Part shown: piece after piece, positions 12,911 through 53,378 of the stretch | Numbering within the stretch: position 1 is the first letter of the stretch | Layout of the letters: every line of letters begins with the position of its first letter | Assembly (NCBI GenBank): GCA_016930695.1 | Contig: JAFGGD010000026.1 | Coordinates: 114,904-178,903 of the forward strand | Direction: 5' to 3' | DNA length: 64,000 nucleotides | Source: Candidatus Eiseniibacteriota bacterium | GTDB taxonomy: Bacteria > Orphanbacterota > Orphanbacteria > Orphanbacterales > Orphanbacteraceae | The notes under the pieces: model-generated | The model's input: the letters and a program-made list of their open reading frames with translations, nothing else | The model's database searches: none | What the model was told of the DNA's origin: nothing | Translations under genes and position numbers: made by a program

Positions 12911-13355
12911 GTAATCTCTCCCGGTCCCCGGCGGTCCCGTGGCTTCTTGTAGATCGTATGGGAGGGCGATGGCCCCGAAGGCCATTCCCCGCGAGAACGT
13001 ACCCGTCCCTTCCCGGGTCCTTGTCCCGCTCGGGCTTGTGGCGGAGCGGGGCGCAAGGACCGTCCTCGAACGAGTTATCGGCATTCCCGAGAATTTCTTG
13101 CCCGTCGGGAAACGATCTGTCTTTCCCGGGGAAACCGGGGAGCGGAGCGGCGGGGGCGGGGGAGTGGGGCGAAAAATCCGCGCGGTTCCGTGCCGTTCGT
13201 CTCGAATCGGCCGGAAAGAGCGAGAAAGAGGAAAATCTTCCCTCCGCGTGGCCGGAGGGGCGGCGTTTCGGGAGGCGTGGACCCTTCATAAGAGAAGTCT
13301 TTGTGCCGAAAAATGATATAGAGACGATTTTCGGTTCCAGCAAGGGAGGGACGGA

Positions 13356-35905: not shown

Positions 35906-37090
35906 CTAGAAGCCGGTGACCATGCCGATCACCCCCCGGTCCGTCTCCCGCTCCAGGTCCCGGGTGTACTCCGCGAGGAAGCGCAGATTGCGCGCAAAGA
36001 GATAGGTGACGCCCGCCGTGGCGGTCTCGTAATCGTAATCGTCCAGATCCGAATCGATCCGGTTGTAGAGCCCGGTGAAGAAGAAACGGGAGCGGTCCTC
36101 TTGGGGCGAGACGACCACCTCCACCACGATTCCCTCGGTCTCCACGTCTTCCGGGGAATCGATGAAAGTGGGATTGGTGTCTTTCCGGAGGAGGTACTGG
36201 ACGGTCGCTCCCACCGGCCCGTATCCCCCGTTCGCGTCCGGGCCCCAATAGGTGATCTCGTTCTCCTCGCCGCCCACGGTCCGTTCCTTGCCGTAGTAAA
36301 TAAAGCCGCCCACGGAGGCGTACTCGCCGATCCCCTGGGCGAGACGGAAGCCGTAGTTCTTGAATTTGTCGTTGTCGAACTTCAGGTTCTCGTCCGCCTC
36401 CGGCTTGCCGTTACCGTTCACCACCATGCCGACCAGGTCGGTGCCGGTCCGCTCGATGCCGTAGAGAAGCATCACCCCCCGGTCGTAGGCGAGATTGTTC
36501 ATCGAGTCGCCGATCCGGGTCTTGTAGATCTGGTAATCTTCGAAGGTGAGCCGCAGCTCGCGCTTCATCAGAGGATCCGAGGTCTGGAACTGGCCGACCA
36601 GCACGTCGAGGGGGACGCCGAAGACGTCGTTGAAGTGGACGTAGGCGTCCTCGATGCCCGCCACCTCCCCCCGCTCGGACATGTAGAAGTAGAAGTAGTA
36701 TCCGATGTTCCGGTAGAGCGCCCCGCCGGACATCAGCTTGATTCCCCAGGGGGACTGCAGGTCGTACTCCACGTCGCCATCTTCTAACGCGTCCTCGTAC
36801 ACGCCGTAGGCGTCGAAGCGGATCGCGACGGGGAAGTCTTTGTTCAGCCAGAGAAGGTCGTCGCCCGCGGTGATATAGTCGCGCTCCTTCTCCTCCTCGG
36901 GGATCATGAATCCGTTGCCGGCGAATTCGTCGCCGTACGGCTTCAGCTTGGGGAAGGGAACGTGGCAGGTGGAGCAGGAGAGCTTGTGCCGCCGCGCGAA
37001 CGCGGGGATCGCGCCTGCTTCTTCGGGGAGGACGGCGGCGAGAACCGTCGCCGCCAGTGCCGCGCACCACACAATCTTCGATCGATTCAT
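35906..37090 (-). CDS. Putative Cyc2-like fused monoheme cytochrome c / outer-membrane beta-barrel
   Basis: Start at MNRSK. Signal peptide. A single CxxCH (CSTCH) about 20 aa after the cleavage site. The remaining roughly 350 aa are rich in alternating aromatic/Gly/Asp residues typical of a beta-barrel and end in ...MVTGF. Lies 50 bp downstream of a multiheme cytochrome gene. Confidence 0.5.
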   Translation of the reverse strand: MNRSKIVWCAALAATVLAAVLPEEAGAIPAFARRHKLSCSTCHVPFPKLKPYGDEFAGNGFMIPEEEKERDYITAGDDLLWLNKDFPVAIRFDAYGVYEDALEDGDVEYDLQSPWGIKLMSGGALYRNIGYYFYFYMSERGEVAGIEDAYVHFNDVFGVPLDVLVGQFQTSDPLMKRELRLTFEDYQIYKTRIGDSMNNLAYDRGVMLLYGIERTGTDLVGMVVNGNGKPEADENLKFDNDKFKNYGFRLAQGIGEYASVGGFIYYGKERTVGGEENEITYWGPDANGGYGPVGATVQYLLRKDTNPTFIDSPEDVETEGIVVEVVVSPQEDRSRFFFTGLYNRIDSDLDDYDYETATAGVTYLFARNLRFLAEYTRDLERETDRGVIGMVTGF

Positions 37091-37142
37091 TCTTTCCGTA
37101 CCTCCCTCTCCGCGCCGCGCGCGCCTCACCGCGCCGCGCGGT

Positions 37143-38489
37143 TCAGTCGTACACTTCGATCCACGTCTCGGCGTGATTGATCGGAACGACCGCGCTCTCG
37201 TCGGCCGGAACATTCAACAGGTCCGCCACCGGCTTCACCAGTTTTTGAAAGTTCAACTCCGCGTGGAATGTCACCCGGCCGGGGGAGAGGTCCTCGGGAA
37301 TTTCCCAGGTGAAGGTCTCGATCTTGGTTTCCCGCGGGCCGATCCGGTAGTCGACGCCGAAGCTCTTCGTGTTCCACTGCATGATGGTCATCCGGCCTTG
37401 GGGATCGAAGTAGGGCATCCGGAAGATCCGGTCGCCGAACGGAACGCCGTCGCGCTGCACGCCGGGGAAGTCCGGATCGTCCAGCGGAACAGCCATGTCC
37501 TGATAGGCGAGCACGTCGGCGGCGATCGTGTACTCCTCTCCGCTGAAACCTTTCGGATCCACGGGAAGGTGCCACGTCCGTCCTTCCTCGTCTTCGGCGG
37601 TCACGTGGAGCCATACGATGCGGTCCTCCACCGAGCCGGTCGGGATCTTGTGGCCCGCCTTCCCGTTGAAGAGCTGCACCTTCACGACAGCGATCCCGTC
37701 GTAGGGGACCTCGCGTTCTTCGGGGTGCATCCGGAGTTCCACGGCGCCGGCCACCTTTCCGGGGTCGTGAGCGCCGTGGAAGAGGTGTTGCGCCACCGAG
37801 TCCGCCTCGACCATGGAGGCGCTCTTCCCCCAGGCGCGCGGCTCGTGACAGCGCTGGCAGGGAACCCCGTCGGCGCCGTAAGGACCGGCGGCCCACTCGA
37901 TCTGGGTCGCCTTCACCCACGCGCCGTAGGGGCTCATCTCGTTGTGACAGGTCCCGCAGAACTCCGCCTGCCGGAGGAAGGGGTTGTACTCCGTGTCGTG
38001 ATGGGGGGAGACGCGCCCCGGTTTGGGGCCGTACTTGGTGCGCCCCGGCGTCGAAATCCAATTGAAGTTAAAAGGGGTGTCGCCGGCGTAGCCGCTCACC
38101 GTGTGGCAGACGTCGCAGCTCACCGATTCGTTGGCGCGGCTGTTCTTCTCCGGGCGCGGCGGAGGGGTGTCCCCCGCCAGATAGGCGATCGGCGTGTGAC
38201 AGCCGTTGCACCCCGGTTCCGCCTTCGCCGCGATCGGGTCCCTCTTGGCGTGCTCCACCGCCAGGCCGAAATACTCGATCTCGTCCCAGTGATGGGTGAA
38301 TGCCTGGGCCATCATCGACTGCTCCCACTGCCGGAAGAGATCGGTGTGACAGCTGCGGCAAGCGGCCGGCTTCTCGTAATCGTCGTAACTCTTGGTGTTG
38401 TAGGCTTCTTCGCCGGAAGGACCGCCCCCCGCAGCGAAGGCGACGTGGGCGGCGAGGAGAAGAACCGGGAGGAGGGTGAAACGTTTCAT
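37143..38489 (-). CDS. Secreted pentaheme c-type cytochrome
   Basis: Start at MKRF (AAGGAGG SD). Signal peptide. Five CxxCH motifs (CRSCH, CNGCH, CDVCH, CGTCH, CQRCH). Confidence 0.8.
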   Translation of the reverse strand: MKRFTLLPVLLLAAHVAFAAGGGPSGEEAYNTKSYDDYEKPAACRSCHTDLFRQWEQSMMAQAFTHHWDEIEYFGLAVEHAKRDPIAAKAEPGCNGCHTPIAYLAGDTPPPRPEKNSRANESVSCDVCHTVSGYAGDTPFNFNWISTPGRTKYGPKPGRVSPHHDTEYNPFLRQAEFCGTCHNEMSPYGAWVKATQIEWAAGPYGADGVPCQRCHEPRAWGKSASMVEADSVAQHLFHGAHDPGKVAGAVELRMHPEEREVPYDGIAVVKVQLFNGKAGHKIPTGSVEDRIVWLHVTAEDEEGRTWHLPVDPKGFSGEEYTIAADVLAYQDMAVPLDDPDFPGVQRDGVPFGDRIFRMPYFDPQGRMTIMQWNTKSFGVDYRIGPRETKIETFTWEIPEDLSPGRVTFHAELNFQKLVKPVADLLNVPADESAVVPINHAETWIEVYD

Positions 38490-38661
38490 CCGGACCTCCT
38501 TTTCGTAGGCCCGGTTCCCGGGATTCAGGGCGCCGGGCGGAAAACCCCTGGGGGACGGCACCATAAGAACAAAAACCGACCCCGGAATCCAGCATTTTTA
38601 CACGATTTGCCTGTTTGTCCTCCGCCGCGCGCGCCGGGTCGCGGGGGATGCGTTTCCGGGG

Positions 38662-39783: not shown

Positions 39784-40653
39784 GTGATGATCCTTGCCGT
39801 GGCAAGTGGAAAAGGGGGAACCGGGAAAACGACCGTCGCGATCGGTTTGGCGCGGGCCGCGGCGGCGGAGGGCCGCACCGTGCTTTTCCTGGACTGCGAT
39901 GTGGAGGCGCCGAACGCGGCGCTCTTCCTCCATCCGGAGTGGGAGGAGGAAAGGCGGGTCGGCGTCCTCCTGCCCGAGGTGGACCCGGAGAAGTGCACGG
40001 GCTGCGGGCGCTGCGCCGAGGTGTGCGCCTATTCCGCCCTCGCCGTGGTGAACGGGAAGGTGCTCCTTTTCGACGATCTCTGCCACGGCTGCGGGAGCTG
40101 CATGCGGCAGTGTCCCGAGAAGGCGATCACCGAACGGCTCCATACAACCGGAAGCCTCCATGCGGGCCGGGCCGGCGCGATTCTCTTCGCCCGGGGCGTG
40201 CTCGACGTGGGGCGAGCCATGGCGCCGCCCGTGATCCGCGAACTGAAACGATGGAAGCTCGGGGGCGCGGGCGGGCCGGGACGCCTGGCGGTGCTCGACG
40301 CGCCTCCGGGCGCGTCCTGTCCGGTGGTGGAAACTCTCCGGGGCGCCGACCGCGTTCTTCTCGTCACCGAACCGACCCCCTTCGGCCTGCACGACCTGGA
40401 GCAGGCGATCGGCCTCGCCCGGGACGCCCTCGGGCTCCCCGTCGATGTCGTTCTGAACCGCGCCGACGAGGGAGATGACGCCGTGGAGCGTTTTTGCGAG
40501 AAAGAGGGGATCCCCGTGGTGCTCCGCATACCCTTCGACAGGAAGATCGCCGAGGCGTATTCGGAAGGAATCGCGCCGGACCACGCGGTGCCGGAGGTCG
40601 GGCGCGCCTTTCGGGATCTCCTGCTCGTGCTCGCCGGGAGGGAGGGAGGATGA
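39784..40653 (+). CDS. MinD/ParA-superfamily P-loop ATPase with inserted 2x[4Fe-4S] ferredoxin domain (CooC-like)
   Basis: Deviant Walker A GKGGTGKTT. Two Fe-S cysteine clusters, CTGCGRCAEVC and CHGCGSCMRQCP. Confidence 0.8.
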   Translation: MMILAVASGKGGTGKTTVAIGLARAAAAEGRTVLFLDCDVEAPNAALFLHPEWEEERRVGVLLPEVDPEKCTGCGRCAEVCAYSALAVVNGKVLLFDDLCHGCGSCMRQCPEKAITERLHTTGSLHAGRAGAILFARGVLDVGRAMAPPVIRELKRWKLGGAGGPGRLAVLDAPPGASCPVVETLRGADRVLLVTEPTPFGLHDLEQAIGLARDALGLPVDVVLNRADEGDDAVERFCEKEGIPVVLRIPFDRKIAEAYSEGIAPDHAVPEVGRAFRDLLLVLAGREGG

Positions 40654-41561
40654 TGAAGCAACTGGTCGTGCTGAGCGGCAAGGGGGGCACGGGGAAGACA
40701 TCGGTCGCCGCCGCGCTCGCGGTGCTCGCCTCGCGTGAGAGGAAGATCGTCCTCGCCGACGCGGACGTGGACGCCGCCAATCTCGCCATCCTTCTCGACC
40801 CGATCGAGGAGGAGCGTGTCGACTTCGTTTCGCCCGAAACCGCGGCGATCGATCCGGAGCGGTGCGTCGCCTGCGGCCTCTGCGCCGAGGCGTGCCGCTT
40901 CGACGCGATCCCGGTCGAGGATTCCGTCTACCGGGTCGATCCACTCGGATGCGAGGGGTGCCGCGCCTGCCTCTGGGTCTGTCCCGAGGACGCGATCCGC
41001 ATGGAGCGCGAACCGGCCGGCTTTCGACTCCGTTCGCGCACCCCCTACGGCCTTCTTCACCACGCCCACCTCTTTCCCGGCGCGGAGAATTCGGGAAAAC
41101 TGGTGAGCGAGGTGCGGCGCGAGGCGCGGCGGAGCGCCTTGGACGGAGGCGCGGACTTCATTCTGATCGACGGGCCGCCCGGCATCGGCTGTCCGGTGAT
41201 CGCGGCGAGCACCGGCGTCGATCTCGCTCTTCTCGTCGCCGAGCCGACCGTCTCGGCGATCCACGACCTGGCGCGCGTGCGCGGCGCCGCGGAACACTTC
41301 GATGTTCCCTGCGCGATCGTCGTCAACAAGTGGGATCTGAATCCGGGGAAGACCGCCGAGATCGAGCGCTTCGCCGCGCGCGACGGCTTGGAGATCTGGG
41401 GAAGGATTCCCTACGACCGGGAGGTGCCGCGCACGCTCGTGATGCGCCGTCCGATCACCGAGTGTCCCGCCGAGGGTGTGCGGAAGGCGATCGCGGAAAT
41501 CTGGGAAGCGGCGCGCCGCGCCATGGATGACGCCGGCGATCCCTTTCCGACGCGCGGCTAA
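40650..41561 (+). CDS. Second MinD/ParA-superfamily ATPase with inserted 4Fe-4S ferredoxin domain
   Basis: GKGGTGKTS. CVACGLCAEAC and CEGCRACLWVCP. ATGA overlap with the upstream paralogue. Confidence 0.8.
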   Translation: MMKQLVVLSGKGGTGKTSVAAALAVLASRERKIVLADADVDAANLAILLDPIEEERVDFVSPETAAIDPERCVACGLCAEACRFDAIPVEDSVYRVDPLGCEGCRACLWVCPEDAIRMEREPAGFRLRSRTPYGLLHHAHLFPGAENSGKLVSEVRREARRSALDGGADFILIDGPPGIGCPVIAASTGVDLALLVAEPTVSAIHDLARVRGAAEHFDVPCAIVVNKWDLNPGKTAEIERFAARDGLEIWGRIPYDREVPRTLVMRRPITECPAEGVRKAIAEIWEAARRAMDDAGDPFPTRG

Positions 41562-41641: not shown

Positions 41642-42055
41642 CTAGAGGCCGAGCACGCGGGCCGCGGTTTCATACTCCTCCGGCCGCACGTGGAGGATAT
41701 AGCCGAAACGCCCCGCGCCGTCCCCCACGGCGTAAGAGGAGTAAACGTTCACGCCGCCGTCGCACAGCTTGCGATGGAGTTCGCCGAGCGCTCCCATCTC
41801 GTCCTTTCCCTGGACAATGAAAGCGTTTTGCGGGCCCGTCAACACCAGGTCCACCGACCCGGCCGCCCGTGTGAGTGCTTGGGGATCCTCGGGGAAGAGA
41901 ACGAGCTGCGTGCTGTCCGCGCCGAAGGGAATGGCGTGGAAGGCGCACAAATTGACCCCCTTCTCCTTGAGGCGGCAGAGAAGGTGGCACGCGCCGCACG
42001 GTTTGTCTTTGACTGTCGTATAGAAATACGCGACCCGACGAATGATCATGTCCAT
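41642..42055 (-). CDS. Hypothetical protein, tandem ACT-like fold
   Basis: 137-aa ORF with two similar halves resembling ACT regulatory domains. No strong motif. Confidence 0.4.
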   Translation of the reverse strand: MDMIIRRVAYFYTTVKDKPCGACHLLCRLKEKGVNLCAFHAIPFGADSTQLVLFPEDPQALTRAAGSVDLVLTGPQNAFIVQGKDEMGALGELHRKLCDGGVNVYSSYAVGDGAGRFGYILHVRPEEYETAARVLGL

Positions 42056-42167: not shown

Positions 42168-42581
42168 TCATTCCGAAGAGCGGCGGGCGGCCGTCAGCAC
42201 GAAAACCGCCCGCGCGGCCGCCCTCTCTTCACCGTCCTGTACGAGGATGGCGCTGGTGCGCATCAGCCGCCGTTTCCGTTCTTCCACACGGGCGGTGACG
42301 GTCAGCGCTCTCTCGGTGCTCACCGGCTTTTTGAAGGAAACGTGGATCTCGGCGGTGGCGGCCCCCTCGGCGAGGCTGCCGGTTGCGTAAGCCATCGCTT
42401 CGTCGAGCAACGTGGAGATGACGCCGCCGTGCAATACGCCGCTCCAGCCCTGGTATTCCCGTTTCGGCGTCCAGGTGAAAACGGCGCTCCCCTCTTCATC
42501 CGTCCGCACGTTCAGATGCAGCCCGATCGGATTGCGGGATCCGCAAGCAAAGCAGTAATCGTTGTCGGTGAATCGGTTCAT
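42168..42581 (-). CDS. PaaI-family hotdog-fold thioesterase
   Basis: The C-terminal 137 aa of a long ORF. Start at MNRF. Motif region HGGVISTLLDEAM typical of PaaI/4HBT thioesterases. The upstream part of the ORF is junk. Confidence 0.7.
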   Translation of the reverse strand: MNRFTDNDYCFACGSRNPIGLHLNVRTDEEGSAVFTWTPKREYQGWSGVLHGGVISTLLDEAMAYATGSLAEGAATAEIHVSFKKPVSTERALTVTARVEERKRRLMRTSAILVQDGEERAAARAVFVLTAARRSSE

Positions 42582-42794
42582 GGTCTCTCCTCTCGGGCGA
42601 ATTCTCTCCCAGTATAGAGCGGACCATGCGCGTGTTCGTAGGATATTTGGGAAGACGACAACTTTTCGCGAAGCGAAAAAGCATCGGGTGCCGAGGCCGG
42701 TTTCCGCGCCCCTACGTTGCCGGGATCGCTCCCGTGTGACACAATGAAAGAAGCGGTGGGCGCCGCCGGCGTCTTCCGCGCGCGTGGGGAGGCG

Positions 42795-44045
42795 ATGATC
42801 GAAGCAAAGGGCACGGTATTGAACCGGCGGGAGTTCCTCCGTCTCGCCGGAATCGGGGGTGCGTGCGCCGCCGCGTCGAGTCCATTCCTGTCCGGGCGGC
42901 TCGGGCGCTTGTTGACGGGCGCGGGCGTCGCGGAGGCGGCGGGCGCGAGCCCTCTGGCGCGCAACGCTCCGGAGGCGCGCTACTACGTCTCCACCCTCGC
43001 TCCGGCGGGGGTCTGCGCTTCCTGTCACGGCGACGCCTCGGACCTCGATGTCTCCTACCGGCACACCTCCCGCGCGGTGAAGTGCTTCCTCTGCGCGAAC
43101 GAGTGCGACATCCCGGACGGCGCGCGCGGGCTTTGCCGTGCACGTGAGAACGTGGGCGGCGTCCTCAAGACCCTCGTCTACGGCCGCCCCGCGGCGATCC
43201 ACGTCGACCCGATCGAGAAAAAACCCTTCTATCATTTCCTCCCCGGCACGACCGCCTTTTCCATAGGCACCGCCGGATGTCCTCTCCGCTGCGAGTTTTG
43301 CCAGAACTGGGAGCTTTCCTCCGCCGCTCCCGAGGAGATCGAAGGGGAGGAGGTGACCCCCGGCGCGATCGTTCGCGCCGCCCTCCGGCGGGGAGCGCCC
43401 ACCATCGCCTTCACCTACAACGAGCCGACGGTTTTTTTCGAATACCTCGCCGACATTTCCCGGGAGGGACGGAAAGAGGGGCTCCGGCACGTGCTGGTCA
43501 GCTCCGGTTACATGAACCCGGAGCCGCTCGAGGAGATGTGCGGTTTCTTGGACGCGATCAAGATCGACCTCAAAGGTTACGACGAGGAGTTTTACAGGAA
43601 GGTCTGCGGCGGCGAGCTGGGGCCGGTGCTCCGGTCGATCCGGGGGGCGGCGCGCCGCGGTGTCCATCTGGAGATCGTCAATTTGGTGGTTCCCACGCTG
43701 AACGATTCGCCGGAGCGCCTGCGCGAACTCTGCCGCTGGGTCGCCGGAGAGACGGGGCCGGACACGCCGGTCCACTTCACCCGCTTTCATCCGGATTATC
43801 GAATGCTGAATCTTCCGCCGACGCCCGTCTCCACGCTGGAGCGCGCCTGGGAGATCGCGCGCGAAGAGGGCCTTCGCTATCCCTACGTGGGGAACGTGCC
43901 GGACCACCCCGGAAACAACACCTACTGCCCCTCCTGCGGCGGGAAGGCGATCGAGAGGATCGGCTTCCACACCATCGGGGTCCGCGTGGACGAGGAGGGA
44001 AGGTGCGCCGCTTGCGGCGCGCCGATCGCCGGAGTATGGAAATGA
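42795..44045 (+). CDS. AmmeMemoRadiSam-system radical SAM enzyme with N-terminal twin-arginine-like extension
   Basis: Family N-terminal motif CFLCANECDIPDGARGLCRAREN. Radical SAM CPLRCEFC (CxxxCxxC). An approximately 65-aa N-terminal extension carries NRREFLRLAG and CASCH. Followed by Memo and AMMECR1 domains. Confidence 0.75.
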   Translation: MIEAKGTVLNRREFLRLAGIGGACAAASSPFLSGRLGRLLTGAGVAEAAGASPLARNAPEARYYVSTLAPAGVCASCHGDASDLDVSYRHTSRAVKCFLCANECDIPDGARGLCRARENVGGVLKTLVYGRPAAIHVDPIEKKPFYHFLPGTTAFSIGTAGCPLRCEFCQNWELSSAAPEEIEGEEVTPGAIVRAALRRGAPTIAFTYNEPTVFFEYLADISREGRKEGLRHVLVSSGYMNPEPLEEMCGFLDAIKIDLKGYDEEFYRKVCGGELGPVLRSIRGAARRGVHLEIVNLVVPTLNDSPERLRELCRWVAGETGPDTPVHFTRFHPDYRMLNLPPTPVSTLERAWEIAREEGLRYPYVGNVPDHPGNNTYCPSCGGKAIERIGFHTIGVRVDEEGRCAACGAPIAGVWK

Positions 44046-45628
44046 AGAGAATTCGAAGAGCGGCCGAACGCCGCGCCGCGCGTCTCCTCGTCCCGGCGAT
44101 CGCCTGCGCGCTCCTCCTCCCCGGAACGGCGGGCTGCGCGGGCGACGCCGGAAACGAGGGACCGGGCGTGCGGGAACCGGCGGTGGCGGGAAGCTTCTAT
44201 CCCGAAGATCCGGATCGGCTGAGACTCGCCGTGCGCGCCTTCCTGAATGAGGCGCCGGTGAAGGAGAAGGGGACGGCGCTCGCGATCCTGGCGCCGCACG
44301 CCGGGTACATCTACTCCGGGCAGATCGCCGCGGACGCCTGGCGGCAGGCGGCGGAACTCCCCATCGAGACGGTGGTGATCCTCGGCACCAACCACACCAC
44401 CGCCCCTTTTCGGGGCGCGTCGGTTTGGGGGAGCGGCGCCTACGGGACGCCGCTCGGCGACGCGCCGGTGGACGCGGAGTTCGCGGCGCGGCTCCGCGAG
44501 GAAGACGACCGTTTCGTCTTCCGCGCCGATACGCACCGGAAGGAACATTCCGTGGAGGTGCAGGTTCCCTTCGCCCAGATCCTTTTTCCCGAGGCGCGCA
44601 TCGTGCCGATGGTGATCGGCGATAAGGACGCGGAGATGTGCCGCGCCCTCGGCCGCGCGATCGGCCGGATCGCCTCGCCCGGCCGCACGCTGATCGTGGC
44701 GAGCACCGACCTTTCGCACTATCCCGCCTACGACGACGCGGTCCGGTCGGACCATGCCGTGCTCCGCGCCGTCGCTTCCCTCGATCCTTCGGAGGTGAAG
44801 CGAACGATCGCCCGCGAGATGGACCGGGGCGCGGCGGATCTCTCCACCTGCGCCTGCGGCGAGGGACCGATCCTCGTCGCGATGCATGCCGCCCTCGAGA
44901 TGGGCGCCGATCACGCCACGGTGGTGAGCTACGCCAACTCGGGGATGGCCGCCATCGGAAACCCCGACCGGGTAGTCGGTTACGGAGCGGTCGCCTTCTC
45001 CTCCGGAGGCGGAGGGACGGACCTTGCGGCGCTCGAATCGCCGGCTCCGGCGCGCGAGGTCGATGGGCCGCTCACCGGGGAACAGCGCGCCTGGTTGATC
45101 GACCTGGCTCGGCGGAGCGTGGAGCAATACATGCTCACCGGCACGGCGCCCCTCGCCCGTCCCGACGATCCGGCGCTTCTGGCGCGGCGCGGCGCCTTCG
45201 TCACGCTGAAGAAGCGCGGCGAGCTGCGCGGCTGCATCGGCCACATGAAGGAGGATCTCCCCCTCGCCCGAACCGTGGGGGCGATGGCCCTGCAGGCCGC
45301 CTTCAACGATCGTCGCTTCCAGCCCGTTCAATGGGAGGAGTGGCGCGACATCACCGTAGAGATCTCGGTGCTCACCCCGTTTCGCGAGATCGACGGGCCG
45401 GAGAAGATCGTGATCGGGCGCGACGGCGTGCTCCTGAAAAAGGACGGGCGCTCCGCGGTCTACCTCCCCCAGGTCGCCCCCGAACAGGGTTGGGATCGGG
45501 AGGAGACGCTCGATCATCTCTGCGCCAAGGCGGGCCTCCCCGGCGGTTGCTGGAAGAGGGGCGCCGCGCTCTACACCTTCCAGGCGGAGGTGTTCGCCGA
45601 GGAGGGGGACGCGGAGGCTTCGCGCTGA
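44036..45628 (+). CDS. Fused Memo-like (AmmeMemoRadiSam protein B) + AMMECR1 (protein A) protein with signal/lipobox-like N-terminus
   Basis: Memo motifs AGSFYPEDPDRL, ILAPHAGYIYSG, LGTNHT. C-terminal AMMECR1 motif GAFVTLKKRGELRGCIGHM. N-terminus MEMKRIRR...LLLPGTAGCAG. Start overlaps the radical SAM stop. Confidence 0.75.
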   Translation: MEMKRIRRAAERRAARLLVPAIACALLLPGTAGCAGDAGNEGPGVREPAVAGSFYPEDPDRLRLAVRAFLNEAPVKEKGTALAILAPHAGYIYSGQIAADAWRQAAELPIETVVILGTNHTTAPFRGASVWGSGAYGTPLGDAPVDAEFAARLREEDDRFVFRADTHRKEHSVEVQVPFAQILFPEARIVPMVIGDKDAEMCRALGRAIGRIASPGRTLIVASTDLSHYPAYDDAVRSDHAVLRAVASLDPSEVKRTIAREMDRGAADLSTCACGEGPILVAMHAALEMGADHATVVSYANSGMAAIGNPDRVVGYGAVAFSSGGGGTDLAALESPAPAREVDGPLTGEQRAWLIDLARRSVEQYMLTGTAPLARPDDPALLARRGAFVTLKKRGELRGCIGHMKEDLPLARTVGAMALQAAFNDRRFQPVQWEEWRDITVEISVLTPFREIDGPEKIVIGRDGVLLKKDGRSAVYLPQVAPEQGWDREETLDHLCAKAGLPGGCWKRGAALYTFQAEVFAEEGDAEASR

Positions 45629-45659
45629 CGGAGACCCCGCGCCCGGAACCGGAAAACCC

Positions 45660-47774
45660 ATGATCCCTCTCCTTCTGACGATCGGTTTTCTCTCCCTCTT
45701 CGGGCAGGTGATCCTGCTCCGGGAAGCGGCGGACGCCTTCTACGGGAGCGAGCTGATCCTCCTTCTCACGATCGCTTTTTGGATGGTGTGGACCGGCGCG
45801 GGCGCGCTTCTCGCGCGCGGTCGCGGCGCCGCGCCCGGCGCGCGGGCGATTCCCGCCGCCCTCGCCGGTCTCGGCGTCGCCTTTCCCGCGTCGGTGCTCT
45901 TTCTTCGCTCGGTCCGCATTCTCTTCCACGGCGTGCCCGGCGCATTTCTCCCCTTCGAGCGCCAGGTCGCCGCGGCCGCGCTCGCATCGGCCCCTGTGGG
46001 GCTACTCCTCGGCGCGCTCTTCGTCCTCGCCGCGCGCCGCCGATCCCGCTCCGGCCGCTTCGCATCCGCCTACGGGATCGAGTCGATCGGCGCGGCGCTC
46101 GGCGGGCTCGCGTCCGTCTTCCTCTTCGCCGGCAGCGCGCCCCCCTTCTCCGCGTCCCTCCTCGCCGGAGCGATCGCCTGGATCGCGGGGGCGGCGCTCG
46201 CCCGCCGGCCCGCGGCGCGCCTCCTTTTCGGCGCCGGTGCGGCGCTTTCGATCGGCTTGGTGTTCTTCGCCGCGGCGTCGTTGGAGAGGGCGACCCTCGC
46301 CTGGCACGCGCCCGGCCTCGTGGAGAGCCGGGACACCCCCTACGGGCGGATCACGCTGACCGAGCGGGGAGGGCAGGCAGTCCTCTTCCGGAACGGCGCG
46401 ATCGTGTTTGAAACACAAAGCACGGACGCGGAGGAGGCGGTTCACCCGGCGCTTTTACAGCGGGAGAGTCCGCGCCGCGTGCTGGTGATCGGCGGCGGCC
46501 CGGCGGGGATGGTCCGCGAGATTCTGCGATACCGCCCCGAGCGCGTGGATGACGTGGAGATCGACGGAGCGGCGATCGACATGATCCGCGGCCGGCTTCC
46601 GGAGACGGAGGGGCGCGCCCTGGACGACCCGGCGGTGAGGTTGATCGCCGGGGATGGGCGCCGTTTTCTGCGCGAGGCCGAAGAGACGTATGACGCGATC
46701 CTGGTCGACATGGGGGAGCCGAACTCCGGCGCGGCGAACCGCTTCTACACGGCCGAGTTTTTCCGTCTCTGCCGGGAGAGGCTTTCCCCGGACGGCGTGC
46801 TCGCCTTCGCCGTTACCGGCGCGGAGCAGTACTGGACGGCGTCGATGGCGCGGCGGAACGGCTCGATCCTGCACGCCCTGAAAGAGGTGTTCGGCGACGT
46901 GGTGGTCCTCCCCGGCGGGCGCAACCTTTTCCTCGCGTCGGAGGAGAGTCTCACCCGCGACCCGGAACCCCTGGTCCGCCGCTTTCAGGAACGCGGAATC
47001 GAGACGAGGCTCCTTTCGGCGCCGCACATTCGTTATCTCTACACGAACGATCGTTTCGATGAGACGGAGAGGAGACTCCGGGAAGCGGACGTTCCGGCCA
47101 ACACCGACCGGCGACCGGTCTGCTATCCCTTCACACTTCTCGCATGGCTCGCCCGCTTCCATCGGCCCCTCGCCGATTTCCGCTTCACCCTCGGCAGGCA
47201 AGTGTGGGCGGTTCCGGCGGTGGCGGCGCTTCTCTTCACGGCGCTTCGCCTGCGTCGCCGGCGGCGGGCGGGACGGCTTTTCCTGGCGGCGTTCGCGGGA
47301 GCATCCGGCGCGGCGCTCGAGTTCGCCCTCCTCCTCCGTTTTCAGACCGCCGCCGGAGCGCTTTACCGGGACGTGGGTGCGCTTCTCGCCGCGTTCATGG
47401 TCGGTCTGGCGGCGAGCCCGCTCGTCGGCCGGCGCGCGGCGCGATCGACGCGCGGGGGGACGGCGCTCGTCGCCGCCTACGCGCTCTTCGCCGGTGCGAC
47501 GGCGCTCTTCCTGCGCGGCGGCTCGGCGGGATATCTCCCGGCGGCCGTTTTCCTGCTCTCCCTCGCCGGGCTCGGCACCGGTTCCGTATACTGCTGGGCC
47601 GCCGAGCGGGATCGGGACGCGGGCGCGTCCCTCTACGGCGCCGACTTGATCGGCGGGAGCGCCGGCGCCGTCGCGGCGACCCTTCTGCTTCTTCCCTTCC
47701 TCGGTCTCGACGCCGCCGCGCTCTGGATCGGGCTTCTCCTCTTCGCCGCGCTCCCCGCGGCCGGCGGGGATTGA
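45660..47774 (+). CDS. Polytopic membrane protein with embedded spermidine-synthase-like (aminopropyltransferase / class I methyltransferase fold) domain
   Basis: N-terminal and C-terminal TM bundles. Central soluble domain with RVLVIGGGPAGMVREIL, DDVEID, ILVDMGEPNSGAANRFYTAEFF. Confidence 0.7.
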   Translation: MIPLLLTIGFLSLFGQVILLREAADAFYGSELILLLTIAFWMVWTGAGALLARGRGAAPGARAIPAALAGLGVAFPASVLFLRSVRILFHGVPGAFLPFERQVAAAALASAPVGLLLGALFVLAARRRSRSGRFASAYGIESIGAALGGLASVFLFAGSAPPFSASLLAGAIAWIAGAALARRPAARLLFGAGAALSIGLVFFAAASLERATLAWHAPGLVESRDTPYGRITLTERGGQAVLFRNGAIVFETQSTDAEEAVHPALLQRESPRRVLVIGGGPAGMVREILRYRPERVDDVEIDGAAIDMIRGRLPETEGRALDDPAVRLIAGDGRRFLREAEETYDAILVDMGEPNSGAANRFYTAEFFRLCRERLSPDGVLAFAVTGAEQYWTASMARRNGSILHALKEVFGDVVVLPGGRNLFLASEESLTRDPEPLVRRFQERGIETRLLSAPHIRYLYTNDRFDETERRLREADVPANTDRRPVCYPFTLLAWLARFHRPLADFRFTLGRQVWAVPAVAALLFTALRLRRRRRAGRLFLAAFAGASGAALEFALLLRFQTAAGALYRDVGALLAAFMVGLAASPLVGRRAARSTRGGTALVAAYALFAGATALFLRGGSAGYLPAAVFLLSLAGLGTGSVYCWAAERDRDAGASLYGADLIGGSAGAVAATLLLLPFLGLDAAALWIGLLLFAALPAAGGD

Positions 47775-48141: not shown

Positions 48142-50217
48142 TTGGGCATGAAAGAGTATCGACGAATCACGCGCGCGGCCGCGTTCATCGCGGCGTTCGC
48201 CGCGCTCGTTCTGTTCGCCGGTTGCGGGACCGACGACGAGGAACTGCTCCCCCGCGACTCCGAAGCGCCACTCTTCATCAACGAGATCCTCGCGGACAAC
48301 GGCGCCGTCGCCGTCGATCCCGACTTCGGCGAGCACTCCGACTGGATCGAGCTGTACAACGCCGGCGCCGCGGCGCTCGACCTGGAGGGTTTCTCCCTCA
48401 CCGACGATCCGTCGAGCGTTTCGCCCTGGACATTTCCGGAAGGATCGACGATCCCCGCCGGCGGTTTCCTACTCGTCTGGGCGGACGACCGGGACACCAC
48501 CGCCGCCGCCCATCACACCGACTTCAAGCTGAGCGCCTCCGGCGAGTCGGTCGTTCTCCGCGACGCGGACGGTCTCACCGCGGACCGGCTCGATTTCGGC
48601 GAGCAGGAGGAAGACATCTCCTGGGGGCGGGTCGCCGACGGCGGCGCGGACTGGGCCGCCTTCGCTTCTCCCACGCCGGGTGTGTCCAACACCGGTTCGG
48701 GGAACGCCGCTCCGGTGATCGTATCGGTCCGGCTCGACCCGTCCACGCCCGGCCCGAACGACACGGTGCGCGTCGTCGCCGTGGTGACCGACGACGATTC
48801 CGCCGCCGTGACGCTCGTCTGGTCCCCCGGCGGCGGAATGATGGAAGCCGCCATGGAGGCTGAGGCGCCGGACACATTCGCCGCGTCGATCCCCCCCTTC
48901 CCCGAGGGATCCACCATCACCTATTGGGTGTCCGCCGAGGACACCGCCGGCGTGGAGGTCCGTTCTCCCGCCAACGCCCCCTCCGAGTCCTACGCCTACA
49001 CGGTCGGGAGCGCCTTCCCCCTCGTTTTCATCAACGAGTTCCTGGCGAGCAACAGCGTCACCGGCGCCGACCCCGACTCCAACGAATACGGCGACTGGAT
49101 CGAGTTGTATAACGGCGGCGCGACCGACGTGGACCTCGCCGGGTGGTTCCTCTCCGACAACCCGAGCGAGCCGCTCCGCTGGACCTTCCCGGAGGGCTCG
49201 ATCGTCGAAGCGGGCGGCTTCTTCCTTCTCTGGGCGGACGGGTACGACTTCGTCGGCCTCGCGGTCCACGCCGATTTCAAGCTCAGTAAGGACGGCGACG
49301 AGGTGATCCTCCTCAGCGACCGGTCCGGGGCGCGGATCGATTCGACGGCGATTGAGCCGCAGACCGTCGATGTGTCGACGGGGCGCGTCACGGACGGCGG
49401 CGCCGCGTGGACCACCTTCACCCTCCCCACGCCGGACGCATCGAACTCCGGCGTCGGCGGGAACACGCCCCCCGCGTTCCTCTCCGCCTCCCTCGCCCCC
49501 GACCCGCCCGCCGCCGGCGAAGCCCCGACGGTGACGGCGGTGATCGTCGACTCCGACGGCGTGGACACCGCCACGGTGCGAGTCGACGTCGGAGCGGGGT
49601 GGACCGAGATTCCCCTGGTACGCGCCGCCGGCGACACCTTCACCGCCGCGCTTCCGGCACGAACGGGAGGGACGCCCGTCGCCTGGTATCTCTACGCCGC
49701 CGACCCGCTCGGCGCCGCTTCCTACGATCCACCCGCCGGGCCGCTCGCCCCGCGCCTGTACACCGTCCCCGGCTCGGCGCCTTCGGTCCTGATCAACGAG
49801 TTCCTCGCCGGGAACGAGACGGGCGCCGCCGATCCGGACTCGGGCGAGACCGGGGACTGGATCGAGCTGTACAACGCGGAAAATTCACCCATCGACCTTT
49901 CCGGCTGGACCATCACGGATGACCCGGAAGCGGAGCCGGCGGAGCGATGGACCTTTCCGCCGGGCGCCTCCATCGCCGCCAAGGACCGGCTCCTTCTCTG
50001 GGCGGACGGCGAGGATTTCGCCGGGATCGCGCTCCACGCCGATTTCAAGCTGAACCGCGGCGGCGAGTCGATCCTCCTCTTCGACGACGCGGGGGACCGC
50101 GCCGACGGAATCACCTTCGGTCCGCAGACGTTGGACGTCTCCTACGGGAGAACGCCCGACGGCGGTTCCGCCTGGACCTTCTTCGCGACCCCCACGCCGG
50201 GCGCGGCCAACCCCTGA
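48142..50217 (+). CDS. Lipoprotein with three lamin-tail-domain (LTD) repeats separated by Ig-like segments
   Basis: Signal peptide with lipobox LFAGCG. Three repeats of LFINEILADN...DWIELYN...GW.L.D...W.FP; HTDFKLS also recurs. Confidence 0.7.
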   Translation: MGMKEYRRITRAAAFIAAFAALVLFAGCGTDDEELLPRDSEAPLFINEILADNGAVAVDPDFGEHSDWIELYNAGAAALDLEGFSLTDDPSSVSPWTFPEGSTIPAGGFLLVWADDRDTTAAAHHTDFKLSASGESVVLRDADGLTADRLDFGEQEEDISWGRVADGGADWAAFASPTPGVSNTGSGNAAPVIVSVRLDPSTPGPNDTVRVVAVVTDDDSAAVTLVWSPGGGMMEAAMEAEAPDTFAASIPPFPEGSTITYWVSAEDTAGVEVRSPANAPSESYAYTVGSAFPLVFINEFLASNSVTGADPDSNEYGDWIELYNGGATDVDLAGWFLSDNPSEPLRWTFPEGSIVEAGGFFLLWADGYDFVGLAVHADFKLSKDGDEVILLSDRSGARIDSTAIEPQTVDVSTGRVTDGGAAWTTFTLPTPDASNSGVGGNTPPAFLSASLAPDPPAAGEAPTVTAVIVDSDGVDTATVRVDVGAGWTEIPLVRAAGDTFTAALPARTGGTPVAWYLYAADPLGAASYDPPAGPLAPRLYTVPGSAPSVLINEFLAGNETGAADPDSGETGDWIELYNAENSPIDLSGWTITDDPEAEPAERWTFPPGASIAAKDRLLLWADGEDFAGIALHADFKLNRGGESILLFDDAGDRADGITFGPQTLDVSYGRTPDGGSAWTFFATPTPGAANP

Positions 50218-50241: not shown

Positions 50242-51150
50242 ATGGGGCGGATCGCGGCGATCGACCTGGGCACCAACTCGATGAAGCTTCTCGTCGCCGA
50301 CGCCGGCGACGGGGAGATCGAGACGGTGATCGATCGTTTCCGCGTCACCCGGCTCGGCGAGGGGATGGGGGAGCGCCCCCTTCTCCGTGACGGCGCGGTG
50401 GAGAGGAATCTGGAATCTCTCCGCCTCTTCGCCGACGAGGCGAGGGAGGCGGGGGCGCGGCGGATCGTCGCCGCCGGCACCGAGGCGCTCCGCGCCGCCC
50501 GGAACGCCCCGGACTTTTTGGCGCGCGCCGAGCGGGAGTGCGGCGTCGCCGTGGAGATCCTCACCGGAGAGGAGGAGGCTCGCCTCTCCTGGATCGCCGC
50601 ACTCTCCGCCTTCGATCCCATCGAGGGCCCGGTCCTTCTCTTCGATACGGGAGGGGGGAGCACCGAGTTCGTTTTCGGCCGAGGGGGCGCGATCGCGTCG
50701 CGCGCGAGCCTCCCCCTCGGATCGCGCGTTCTCGCCGAAGCGTTTCTCCGGTCGGATCCACCCGGGCCGGAGGAACGGACACGGCTGGACCACCGTCTCG
50801 CCTTCGCCCTCGATGAGCTGGAGGGAGAGGCGGCTCGGGTGATCGGCGTGGGCGGCACCGTCACCACACTCGCCGCCGTCTTCCTCGGCGTGGAGCCGTA
50901 CGACCCGGCCCGCGTCGGCGGCGCGTCGCTCCCCCTCGCCGAGGTGGAGCGCCAGATCACCCTCTACGCTTCCCTCCCCGGCGAGCGGCGGCGGGAGATC
51001 CCCGGTCTCCATCCGGACCGCGCGGATGTGATCCTCGCGGGCGCCGCGCTCGTCCGGGCCGTGCTCCGCCGCTTCGGCGCTCCCTCTCTTCTCGTCAGCG
51101 ATCGGGGCCTCCGCCACGGCCTTCTGATCGACCGTTTCCTCCGCGATTGA
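50242..51150 (+). CDS. Ppx/GppA phosphatase family protein (N-terminal actin-like ATPase domain only)
   Basis: AAIDLGTNSMKLLVAD and ASKKH-fold motifs. 302 aa. Confidence 0.8.
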   Translation: MGRIAAIDLGTNSMKLLVADAGDGEIETVIDRFRVTRLGEGMGERPLLRDGAVERNLESLRLFADEAREAGARRIVAAGTEALRAARNAPDFLARAERECGVAVEILTGEEEARLSWIAALSAFDPIEGPVLLFDTGGGSTEFVFGRGGAIASRASLPLGSRVLAEAFLRSDPPGPEERTRLDHRLAFALDELEGEAARVIGVGGTVTTLAAVFLGVEPYDPARVGGASLPLAEVERQITLYASLPGERRREIPGLHPDRADVILAGAALVRAVLRRFGAPSLLVSDRGLRHGLLIDRFLRD

Positions 51151-51275
51151 GAGGCGACACGGGCCGCGCGCGGGAGGCGATTTCGCGGGCCGGGCTTGCG
51201 CCATCGCTCTTTTGGGAGGAAAGTAAGGGGAGAGCACCCACCGGCTCGGGACGATCGGAATCACGGAAAAGGAAA

Positions 51276-53378
51276 ATGCGCTCTTTCTCGAGCTTCGCCG
51301 TCCGTTTCCGGGACACGACCACGCGTTTTCGTCTCGGCGCGGCGCTTGCGGCCGCGGCTCTCCTCGCGCTCTTTGCCGCCGGCGCGGGCGCACAGATCGT
51401 CCTCAACGAGATCATGTACAACACGCCCGACTCGCCCGACGTGGAGTGGGTGGAACTGGTGAACGTCTCCGCCGCCGCCGTCGATCTCGATGGCTGGTAC
51501 CTTCTCGACGAAGACGACGGCCACGTTCCCTGCGCGCTCGCCGGCGTTCTCGATCCGGGGGCTTTTCTGGTCGTCGCCGGCGACGACACCCTCTTCGCCG
51601 CCGCCTACCCGGACGTGGAGAACGTGAACCCGAACGTCTTCGGCATGGGACCGGACGGATGGAACCTGGGGAACGGCGGCGACGCGATCCGTCTCTACGA
51701 CGACGACGACGAACTCGCCGACCGCGTGGACTTCGACGACGCCTCCCCCTGGCCGACCGCGCCGGACGGCGACGGTCCCTCGCTGGAGCTGCTGAACCCC
51801 GCCCTCGACAACGCCTCCGCCGTGAGCTGGGCGGCGAGCATCGCCGCCGGCGGGAGCCCGGGAGCGCCGAACACGGTTTACGTGAACGACCAACCGCCGG
51901 CGGTGGGCGCCCTCTCCCGCGACATCCTTCTCCCCGGACCCGCCGACACGGTGACGGTGACCGCCCGCGCTTTCGATGACGACTCCCTCGCGGCCGTGCT
52001 TCTTTACATGGACGACGGGAGCGGCTTCACGCCGGCGCCGATGGCCGACGACGGCCTGCACGGCGACGGCGCCCCGGGCGATTCCCTCTTCGGCGTCCGT
52101 CTCGCCCCGCGTCCCTTCGGCGCGTTGGTCCGCTACTATGTCCTCGCCGAGGACGGCATCAGCCAAACCGCGACCGATCCACCGGACGCCCCGGCCGCCT
52201 ACCATGCCTACACCGTGGGATACGAGCCTCCCATGCTCACGATTTCCGAGGCGCTCGCCGTGAACGATTCCGGCGCCGCCGACGAGATGGGCGAGCGCGA
52301 GGACTGGATCGAGATCCGCAACGGCGGACCGTCGCCGGCCGCGCTCGGCGGAATGTTCCTCACGGACGACTTCGACTCGCCGATGAAATGGGCGCTCCCG
52401 GACACGACGATCCCGGCGGGCGACCATCTGCTCGTCTGGGCCGACGGAGAGCCGGAAGAGGGGCCTCTTCACGCGGACTTCAAGCTCTCCGCCGGCGGTG
52501 AGGAGGTGGGGCTTTTCGAGACGACCGATCACGGGAACGGGCGAATCCACGGATTCACCTTCGGCCCGCAGAGCGCGGATATCTCCTTCGGTTATCTGCC
52601 GGGGGACAACGCGCCCGAGTACCTCGATCCTCCCACGCCGGGCGCGTCCAACGCATCCTCGTCCCCCTACGGCGAAGTCTGCGTCAACGAACTCTTCGCC
52701 GCCTCCACCGCGTCGGGCGGCGAGGACTGGTTGGAGTTGTGGAACCGCGGAGGCGCCGCGGTCGGTCTGGGCGGTTGGTTCCTCTCCGACGATACGAACG
52801 AGCCGGAACGATACCGCATCGCCGACGGGACCTCACTCCCCGCGGGCGCTTTTCTCGTTTTCACCGAAAGCGAACTCGGCTTCGCCTTTTCCGCATCCGG
52901 CGACGAGGCGGTCCTTCTCACGGCGCCGGACGGCGCGACCGGGGTGGACTACTACGACTACGGCCCGCAGATCGCCGGCGCGTCGGTGGGACGCTGGCCC
53001 GATGGAACCGGTTTCTGGAGCGTGATGGAATCCCCCACGCCGGGCGCGCCCAACGGAGACCCGGTCGGGGTGGACGAATCGGCGGCGGCGGCTCCCCCCG
53101 CGGCGGCGCGGATCGCCGCCAACCGGCCGAATCCCTTCAACCCGACGACGACCATCCTCTTCGAGACCTTGAAAAGAGGACGCGCGCGGATCCGCGTCTA
53201 CGACCTCGGCGGGCGGCGTGTCCGCTCTCTCGTGGACGCCTCTCTCGAACCCGGATCGCACGAGGCGCGGTGGGACGGCCGAAACGACGCGGGGCGGCCG
53301 GTGGCCGGCGGATTCTACTTCGCCCGCCTCGAGACGGAAGGTTCCTCGTGCGCGGTGAAGATGCTTCTTCTCCGATGA
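51276..53378 (+). CDS. Secreted protein with three LTD repeats and a C-terminal FlgD-Ig / T9SS-type sorting domain
   Basis: Start at MRSF. Signal peptide. IVLNEIMYNTP...EWVELVN...GWYLLDED repeats. C-terminal approximately 80 aa (RPNPFNPTTTILFE...VYDLGGRRVRSL...GFYFARLE) match the C-terminal sorting/FlgD-Ig-like domain pattern. Confidence 0.7.
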   Translation: MRSFSSFAVRFRDTTTRFRLGAALAAAALLALFAAGAGAQIVLNEIMYNTPDSPDVEWVELVNVSAAAVDLDGWYLLDEDDGHVPCALAGVLDPGAFLVVAGDDTLFAAAYPDVENVNPNVFGMGPDGWNLGNGGDAIRLYDDDDELADRVDFDDASPWPTAPDGDGPSLELLNPALDNASAVSWAASIAAGGSPGAPNTVYVNDQPPAVGALSRDILLPGPADTVTVTARAFDDDSLAAVLLYMDDGSGFTPAPMADDGLHGDGAPGDSLFGVRLAPRPFGALVRYYVLAEDGISQTATDPPDAPAAYHAYTVGYEPPMLTISEALAVNDSGAADEMGEREDWIEIRNGGPSPAALGGMFLTDDFDSPMKWALPDTTIPAGDHLLVWADGEPEEGPLHADFKLSAGGEEVGLFETTDHGNGRIHGFTFGPQSADISFGYLPGDNAPEYLDPPTPGASNASSSPYGEVCVNELFAASTASGGEDWLELWNRGGAAVGLGGWFLSDDTNEPERYRIADGTSLPAGAFLVFTESELGFAFSASGDEAVLLTAPDGATGVDYYDYGPQIAGASVGRWPDGTGFWSVMESPTPGAPNGDPVGVDESAAAAPPAAARIAANRPNPFNPTTTILFETLKRGRARIRVYDLGGRRVRSLVDASLEPGSHEARWDGRNDAGRPVAGGFYFARLETEGSSCAVKMLLLR

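Follow-up and report, generated by a model that had tools for sequence, protein, structure and literature searches.

Background

AmmeMemoRadiSam systems bring together a radical S-adenosylmethionine (SAM) enzyme, a Memo domain and an AMMECR1 domain, and the canonical system is said to be known from bioinformatic descriptions in TIGRFAMs and in Burroughs et al. 2019 (JBC). We analyze a system of this kind in a stretch of 64,000 nucleotides (hereafter, "the window") from a Candidatus Eiseniibacteriota bacterium (contig JAFGGD010000026.1, positions 114,904 to 178,903 of the forward strand). Positions 42795-47774 of the window, on the + strand, hold a three-gene operon that encodes a radical SAM enzyme, a Memo-AMMECR1 fusion protein and a SpeE-like membrane protein with 14 transmembrane (TM) segments. 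From evidence that is computational throughout, our best reading is that this operon represents a widespread extracytoplasmic variant of the AmmeMemoRadiSam system, present in many bacterial phyla and placed where one would not look for radical SAM chemistry.

The core of the canonical system is shared in full. TIGR04335, TIGR04336 and TIGR04337 are all matched above cutoff, which bears out the original prediction (a reading of this DNA from its sequence alone) that the locus belongs to the family; the genes are adjacent and coupled; and the radical SAM cluster motif, the Memo metal-site positions and the LRGCIG motif of AMMECR1 are intact. What differs from the canonical system is the presence of export signals on both polypeptides, a linked gene for a 14-TM SpeE-like protein, and a CxxCH…H insertion in the radical SAM enzyme. 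Archaeal and basal members of the family have no export signals, no SpeE-like gene and no CxxCH…H insertion.

Other described proteins resemble parts of the locus. For the radical SAM core, the closest relative in both structure and sequence is the pyruvate formate-lyase (PFL)-activating enzyme (PDB 3cb8/8fo0; Foldseek E 4e-15, TM-score 0.79-0.81 normalized to the target; phmmer E 6e-8), with whose cluster motif the CX3CX2C of the window enzyme aligns; there is no solved structure of the AmmeMemoRadiSam radical SAM family itself. The PFL-activating enzyme, however, is cytoplasmic and is without the N-terminal four-Cys motif, the C-terminal four-Cys motif, the twin-arginine translocation (Tat) signal and the CxxCH insertion of the window enzyme, and no glycyl-radical enzyme is encoded near the operon. 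Fe-S proteins that are exported by Tat include hydrogenase small subunits, the Rieske protein and NapG/NrfC-type ferredoxins, all of them electron carriers. They share with the window enzyme a twin-arginine signal and Fe-S clusters that are needed before export; to our knowledge, none of them is a SAM-dependent radical enzyme.

A link between a radical SAM enzyme and the cell exterior has been described in another form. In the HXS antiphage system (PMC13128918), the radical SAM enzyme has no signal and works in the cytoplasm, from which the product is exported later. Both HXS and the anaerobic sulfatase maturase tie a radical SAM enzyme to an extracytoplasmic protein, as we propose here, but in both cases the enzyme is cytoplasmic and signal-less, whereas in the present locus the enzyme itself bears a signal. 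The third gene, finally, resembles the SpeE aminopropyltransferases (including PRK03612, "fused MFS/spermidine synthase", where MFS stands for major facilitator superfamily) in its PF01564 fold, its ribose-binding Glu and its adenine-binding Asp. It departs from them in missing the equivalog cutoffs, in having a hydrophobic residue in place of the acid of the GGG[D/E]G motif and mostly Gly or Ala in place of the catalytic Asp, and in the position of the domain, which sits between two 6-TM repeats and is predicted to face outward.

Our literature search found no exported AmmeMemoRadiSam system and no Tat-exported radical SAM enzyme, with the caveat that Burroughs et al. 2019 may mention secreted versions. 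The same search found no paper that assigns a biochemical function or substrate to the family. The databases name the proteins of the locus correctly and are silent on their localization. Beyond what the original prediction had described, the present work adds the third gene of the operon, the co-variation of signals between partner proteins, and the reading of a C-A-S-C-H sequence as a candidate heme-c motif.

Results and discussion

The radical SAM enzyme has a conserved twin-arginine N-terminus

The first protein of the operon matches TIGR04337 over residues 92-415 with 370.9 bits (cutoff 220), and PF04055 as well. Its catalytic motifs CX3CX2C and YNEPT are intact, and a Candidatus Eisenbacteria metagenome-assembled genome (MAG) has a protein with 100% identity to it. 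We compared it with its 120 best homologues (57-81% identity, ~98% query coverage), whose source names include Eisenbacteria, Acidobacteriota, Thermodesulfobacteriota/Deltaproteobacteria and Hatepunaea; the alignment built from this set holds 119 sequences.

The consensus for Tat export is [ST]RRxFL. Residues 10-16 of the window enzyme read N-R-R-E-F-L-R, the twin-arginine motif to which the original prediction had drawn attention, and residues 9-34 match the Tat-signal model TIGR01409 (19.8 bits; cutoff 16.7). Among the 120 homologues, 112 have an RR motif within the first 60 residues. Position by position, the alignment supports the consensus with S or T in 102 sequences, R in 112, R in 113, any residue at the next position, F in 106 and L in 104, and the motif is followed by an uncharged stretch with a mean length of 18 residues and a mean Kyte-Doolittle (KD) hydropathy of 1.2. 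Besides the RR pair, the near-invariant N-terminal positions are A58, P59, A61, R62 and W64. Used by themselves as a query against a representative library, the first 94 residues gave three weak matches, which are no guide to the size of the clade.

The sequence that precedes the match to the family hidden Markov model (HMM) amounts to ~91 aa. An N-terminal extension had been predicted, and the extra sequence is indeed present; it is, however, neither the ~65 aa long that was supposed nor a single block. It consists of a signal of ~50 aa, then the N-terminal strand that belongs to the family itself (APEARYY, corresponding to EAxFYEKL in canonical members), then an insertion of ~25 aa that ends ahead of the VKCxLCxxxC motif and includes, at residues 74-78, the C-A-S-C-H that had been reported to precede the N-terminal Cys motif of the family. 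In the AlphaFold2 (AF2) model (pLDDT 90.9), residues 11-27 form a helix, residues 31-50 a low-confidence linker (pLDDT <60), and the confident fold begins at residue 51; the first ~50 residues are, in other words, a detached helix with a disordered linker.

Could these segments lie outside the protein altogether? The start codons might have been mis-called, as the original prediction itself suggested, with the true proteins beginning downstream (e.g., at the GTG of VKCFLC) and the "signals" never translated. High-GC DNA, such as that of the window (G+C ~0.62-0.71 in 2-kb windows), yields long stop-free stretches upstream of genes, and a GTG codon is present at V95. Against this, the upstream segment is conserved as protein across 119 homologues (55-81% identity), a start at V95 would remove the family's own N-terminal strand, and a Shine-Dalgarno-like run, GGGGAGG, lies just 5' of ATG 42795. 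The counts point the same way, with RR in 112 of 120 sequences, CxxCH (C74, C77 and H78) in 119 of 119, and a hydrophobic N-terminal signal ahead of the Memo domain in 110 of the 120 nearest homologues of the fusion protein. We find it barely credible that the starts are wrong. Judged from these alignments, the N-terminal features are far beyond chance and are conserved in essentially all close homologues. The comparison with orthologues that had been proposed as a check thus finds the signals kept in the nearest homologues across several phyla and absent from archaeal and basal members.

Further along the enzyme are two four-Cys motifs that are invariant in the alignment (Table 1). The motif of the family N-terminus is a probable auxiliary metal or cluster site; the C-terminal CPxC…CxxC motif would be a site of zinc-ribbon or rubredoxin-like type.

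The Memo-AMMECR1 fusion begins with a lipoprotein-like signal

Memo and AMMECR1 share one open reading frame (ORF), as had been predicted. The Memo match covers residues 46-321 of the fusion (TIGR04336, 248.5 bits against a cutoff of 26; PF01875, 197 bits) and the AMMECR1 match residues 354-520 (TIGR04335, 178 bits against a cutoff of 99; PF01871, 186 bits). PDB relatives of the AMMECR1 domain are PH0010 and MM0484. When the Memo domain is aligned to human MEMO1, the conserved His/His/Asp/His/Cys positions (APHAGY, xxH, D-x-x-H, CG), which we take to be the MEMO1 metal ligands, are all kept. The fusion had been presented as a departure from the norm, but it is an ordinary arrangement, since every one of the 120 nearest homologues shows it and "protein B/protein A" is a routine JGI name for such proteins.

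The fusion gene was also expected to overlap the stop codon of the radical SAM gene. Translational coupling of the two genes stands, although the start that gives 530 aa is the less likely one. The DNA around the start reads …GGAGTATGGAAATGAAG…; ATG 44042 has GGAG 6 nt upstream, it shares an ATGA with the stop codon of the radical SAM gene, and in the NCBI annotation the protein has 528 aa. For these three reasons, ATG 44042 is the more likely start, rather than 44036.

The N-terminus of the fusion is MEMKRIRRAAERRAARLLVPAIACALLLPGTAG followed by C. A signal peptide ending in a lipobox-like sequence had been proposed here, and the sequence agrees with the proposal: the hydrophobic window reaches a KD of 2.6, and G-T-A-G-C34 fits a permissive pattern of the PROSITE type, with Thr and not Leu at position -3. 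At least 38 of the 120 fusion homologues have a lipobox by such a pattern. Export of both proteins is what we infer from these N-termini.

Signals co-vary between partners and with a SpeE-like gene

To place the operon in a wider setting, we compared 80 loci around radical SAM homologues, with one genome per species; tallies are given over 81. N-termini were classified with in-house signal rules plus manual and frame inspection, and three assignments were made by eye (the radical SAM proteins of L002 and L039 as Tat, the Memo protein of L037 as carrying a signal peptide). A locus was counted as signal-bearing if it has a signal on radical SAM or on Memo (59 loci), and 22 are signal-less.

About 55 of the 81 radical SAM proteins have a signal, either of the Tat type (RR or KR) or resembling those of the general secretory (Sec) pathway; archaeal and basal bacterial members have none. 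A neighbor-joining (NJ) tree built from the core domain gathers the enzymes with signals into one large bacterial clade, inside which the CxxCH group is monophyletic. Where both genes lie in the flank, the signals co-vary: both partners have one in 24 loci and neither in 3, and 3+1 loci are discordant (Fisher p=0.016). The loci with neither signal include L060, with separate genes, and L070, in which all three domains are fused. In L070, a single 815-aa polypeptide (5908-8355, +) without a signal peptide consists of radical SAM, Memo and AMMECR1, which argues that the three domains act together physically. L016 (~5200-5440) and L034 (~2200-2450) look at first like exceptions to the co-variation. 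Their radical SAM genes, however, have a frameshift ahead of the Cys motif, and both the signal and the N-terminal strand can still be read in the frame upstream of it; the frameshifts are due either to MAG assembly error or to pseudogenization.

When the ORFs of the flanks are clustered, a SpeE-like gene is found in 38 of the 59 signal-bearing loci and in none of the 22 signal-less ones (p=2.9e-8, a value that is indicative only, as the loci are phylogenetically non-independent). This gene adjoins those for radical SAM and Memo-AMMECR1 in L082-L086, a linkage kept at 33% identity (L082/83), and the order radical SAM, Memo-AMMECR1, SpeE-like gene recurs in the unrelated long contigs L084-L086. 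L084 also has an extra gene (3460-4386, +) for a signal-less Memo protein of 308 aa, between the Tat/CxxCH radical SAM gene and that of the predicted exported fusion.

A 14-TM membrane protein would hold a SpeE-like domain outside

The third gene starts 31 nt past the stop codon of the fusion. Its 704-aa product matches the spermidine-synthase domain PF01564 with 94 bits, and the AF2 model (pLDDT 94.5, pTM 0.93) has 7 TM segments, a Rossmann domain (residues 220-475) and ~7 further TM segments. TM1-6 align with TM9-14 (hhalign probability 90.7%, E 1.3e-6, 156 columns), so the membrane part forms a parallel repeat of 6+6 TM segments, into whose central loop TM7, the domain and TM8 are inserted. 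Repeats of this kind occur in MFS-type transporters, to which Pfam gives no match here. In the loops of the window protein, K and R residues on the side opposite to the SpeE-like domain outnumber those on the same side by 7:2 in the N-terminal half and 11:2 in the C-terminal half; for ten homologues scored as 7+7 TM, the corresponding ratios are ~54:19 and ~70:5. As the positive charges are mostly on the opposite side, the positive-inside rule would place the SpeE-like domain in the periplasm.

A Foldseek search with the membrane protein gave SpeE-domain relatives alone among the matches listed, and the best PDB relative is 1uir, at 27% identity. Across 90 sequences of this SpeE-like family, the ribose-binding Glu (E300) is kept in 86 and the adenine-binding Asp (D332) in 87, and R334 and R361 are invariant. 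At position 281, that of the GGG[D/E]G acid, the family has V, A, I or L and the window protein P; at position 350, that of the catalytic Asp in D-S-x-D-P, 73 of the 90 sequences have G or A, and 7 have D, the window protein among them. In true aminopropyltransferases, the GGG(D/E)G acid selects decarboxylated SAM. We considered whether the third gene might encode a canonical spermidine synthase and rejected this, as neither the acid nor, in most of the family, the catalytic Asp is kept; the equivalog cutoffs of SpeE are likewise all missed (156 vs. 472 for PRK03612, 119 vs. 260, and 98 vs. 249.6), and PF01564 is the one model whose cutoff is passed. By its conserved residues, the domain is predicted to be one that binds an adenosyl ligand, and not a canonical spermidine synthase.

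The topology also bears on an idea that the original prediction had raised, namely membrane association. A membrane location is upheld, but the evidence points to the outer face after export and not to a tethered cytoplasmic enzyme. The N-terminal segments could instead be uncleaved anchors that hold cytoplasm-facing enzymes at the inner face of the membrane. L013, L014 and L020 do have long, very hydrophobic N-terminal helices with no obvious cleavage site, and the difficulty of supplying SAM and reductant outside the cytoplasm (see below) would vanish. Set against this are the positive charges (RR, KK) ahead of the helices, which favor an N-in/C-out orientation, and the agreement of the motif with the export consensus of Tat. 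The small-x-small sites A-E-A and A-G-A that follow the h-region of the window radical SAM protein, the lipoboxes of the partners, which imply translocation, and the location of the SpeE-like domain on the K/R-poor side also speak against it. Inner-face anchoring therefore seems to us quite improbable, and an extracytoplasmic location remains the reading that we prefer.

A CxxCH insertion and candidate electron donors

The C-A-S-C-H sequence belongs to an insertion that canonical family members are without, and its CxxCH motif is confined to the Tat-signal clade. In addition to the invariant C74, C77 and H78, a second histidine, H90, is kept in 106 of the 119 homologues. The insertion is modeled by AF2 with pLDDT 77-82 and has a helical turn at residues 74-78. 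From this pattern, we regard CxxCH…H as a candidate bis-His heme-c site with H90 as the distal ligand; a Cys2His2 metal site is a possible alternative.

That the organism matures c-type cytochromes is indicated by a secreted 473-aa protein encoded 4 kb upstream (37143-38564, -), which has a signal peptide and five CXXCH motifs. This protein has Pfam matches to Cytochrome_C7/C554/c3 and is MtrC-like. Its gene is followed by an unassigned 435-aa ORF (35906-37213, -) with one CXXCH.

Other clades have other neighbors, which also speak for export. In 11 Tat-type loci, a DUF362 protein with a Tat signal of its own is encoded directly upstream. In L082 (4935-14322), the radical SAM, Memo-AMMECR1 and SpeE-like genes are flanked by two Tat-signal DUF362 genes, a lipoprotein of DUF6599 and a Fer4_5 polyferredoxin, and these flanking genes may be a dedicated electron-supply module for clades without CxxCH. 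The presence of DUF362 and the absence of CxxCH look complementary, in numbers too small for a claim. In six Omnitrophota-type loci (L006, L009, L017, L021, L027 and L037), the radical SAM enzyme has a Sec-type signal and its gene adjoins one for a DsbD_2/CcdA-like thiol-reductant transporter.

Where the system may act

Three things are required for radical SAM catalysis: SAM itself, a reductant of ~-450 mV and Fe-S clusters kept free of oxygen. Tat is a known route for Fe-S proteins and exports folded proteins and complexes. Taking signals, partners and topology together, we consider it reasonably probable that the system as a whole operates at the cytoplasmic membrane, on its outer face. The Fe-S clusters would be inserted into the radical SAM enzyme in the cytoplasm, and Tat, by which the folded enzyme would leave, is for that reason its logical route. 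The Memo-AMMECR1 fusion would be exported by Sec and signal peptidase II, with a probable lipid anchor at Cys34, on the outer face of the cytoplasmic membrane, and the 14-TM protein would present its adenosyl-binding SpeE-like domain on that same face. The three proteins would thus meet outside the cytoplasm and act on a substrate located in the envelope or membrane. Our leading guess for this substrate is a lipid or isoprenoid-type molecule. We favor it because of the membrane context and because Burroughs et al. 2019 (JBC), in their abstract, reportedly link Memo systems to nucleotide-base and isoprenoid modification.

How catalysis might proceed there can be sketched more tentatively. The heme c of CxxCH…H would serve as a periplasmic electron inlet to the radical SAM cluster, and in other clades Tat-exported DUF362 or polyferredoxin partners would supply the electrons. 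SAM would be exported or presented by the 6+6-TM protein, whose outward-facing SpeE-like domain would bind it; alternatively, this protein would clear away 5'-deoxyadenosine and methionine. Taken jointly, periplasmic radical SAM catalysis, reduction by heme c, DUF362 or polyferredoxin, and SAM supply through the 6+6-TM protein make up a scheme that we put forward as possible and, on the whole, doubtful.

Several observations weigh against an extracytoplasmic system or against parts of the scheme. We know of no SAM and no low-potential reductants in the periplasm. TIGR01409 reaches E<=0.01 in just 29 of the 119 homologues, being a short HMM of low power. In a sister clade (Omnitrophota, Chlamydiota and others), the radical SAM enzymes have signals or anchors of the Sec type that are very hydrophobic; these fit poorly with an enzyme exported with its clusters already in place and would need either Fe-S assembly after export or another topology. 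In L035, L062 and L080, the Memo protein is of the exported kind but the radical SAM enzyme has no signal, and L081 has a CxxCH radical SAM gene alone. No cytochrome family of Pfam or NCBIfam matches the radical SAM protein, its insertion included, and heme c on a Tat substrate is unusual. Neither TM half of the third protein matches MFS or any other Pfam family.

The radical SAM enzyme might instead act in the cytoplasm, where SAM and reductant are available, on its partner or on a small molecule, and then be co-exported through Tat as no more than a carrier or chaperone, or simply be discarded, with no radical chemistry on the outside. Maturation by a cytoplasmic radical SAM enzyme, with later export of the product, is the usual paradigm (e.g., HXS, PMC13128918). 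Since Tat exports folded proteins and complexes, a signal-less partner could travel with the enzyme, and the extra Memo protein of L084 is a candidate for such a hitch-hiker. The main partner, however, has a Sec/lipoprotein signal of its own and so would cross the membrane unfolded and separately. A CxxCH…H insertion, DUF362 proteins with Tat signals and a periplasmic SAM-fold domain would make little sense for an enzyme that is inert after export, and the signal is conserved over the whole of a large clade. Cytoplasmic action with co-export is hence unlikely in our view, and action at the outer face remains the better account of the locus.

The concordance of export and topology signals across a large clade of several phyla leaves two options: radical chemistry in the periplasm, by routes for SAM and electrons that have gone unrecognized, or a use of Tat for such enzymes that has gone unrecognized. 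Catalysis in the periplasm, if true, would be the first case of a radical SAM system outside the cytoplasm, together with the first dedicated device for SAM export. The Memo/AMMECR1 pair, for its part, would gain a concrete cellular address, on the outer face of the membrane beside a polytopic membrane protein, and this address would narrow the search for the substrate to envelope or membrane molecules.

Features of the operon and its neighborhood

The coordinates of the operon and of its predicted features are collected in Table 1.

Table 1 Genes, domains and motifs of the operon, in window positions
Feature	Position	Strand	Basis
Radical SAM enzyme of the AmmeMemoRadiSam family, PFL-activase-like, 416 aa	42795-44045	+	TIGR04337, PF04055
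Putative twin-arginine signal peptide (residues ~1-51)	42795-42947	+	NRREFLR, uncharged h-region, A-E-A/A-G-A c-region
Clade-specific insertion (residues ~67-94) with C74-x-x-C77-H78 and H90	42993-43076	+	Homologue alignment
Four-Cys motif of the family N-terminus (C97, C100, C104, C114)	43083-43136	+	Invariant in homologue alignment
Radical SAM cluster motif C162-x3-C166-x2-C169 (CPLRCEFC)	43278-43301	+	Invariant in 119 sequences
C-terminal CPxC…CxxC four-Cys motif (C378, C381, C404, C407)	43926-44015	+	Invariant in homologue alignment
Fused Memo + AMMECR1 protein	44036/44042-45628	+	530 aa from 44036, 528 aa from ATG 44042
Putative signal peptide with lipobox: Arg-rich n-region, h-region LLVPAIACALLL, G-T-A-G-C34	44036-44137	+	Hydropathy, lipobox pattern
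Memo domain	44171-44998	+	PF01875/TIGR04336
AMMECR1 domain with LRGCIG motif	45095-45595	+	PF01871/TIGR04335
Third operon gene, 704-aa polytopic membrane protein: 7 TM + SpeE-like Rossmann domain + 7 TM	45660-47774	+	PF01564, AF2
N-terminal TM bundle, TM1-7	45660-46298	+	TM1-6 homologous to TM9-14 (47121-47771)
SpeE-like domain (residues 220-475), predicted periplasmic	46317-47084	+	Positive-inside counts, residue conservation

A scan with Rfam found no riboswitch or other Rfam RNA in the window, and a promoter/terminator scan gave no signal exceeding shuffles.

Divergently oriented upstream of the operon are genes for a PaaI-like thioesterase of the hotdog fold (42168-42590, -) and a 137-aa ORF without a family match that contains CGACH (41642-42055, -). 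On the same strand as the system and just upstream of it, two tandem genes (39784-40653, +, and ~40647-41561, +) encode P-loop ATPases of the MinD/ParA type, both with an inserted ferredoxin-like 4Fe-4S domain and with MrpORP/HdrA-like matches. Two large proteins with three lamin-tail domains each are encoded at 48142-50217 (+) and 51147-53378 (+), the former with a lipobox (LFAGC) and the latter with an FlgD-Ig-like C-terminus, and a Ppx/GppA phosphatase gene lies between them. Elsewhere in the window (8660-13084, -), a [NiFe] hydrogenase is encoded by genes for a small subunit (10680-11618) and a large subunit (9120-10673), with a small ORF downstream (8660-9115) and a gene for a Cache/PAS sensor protein upstream (11630-13084).

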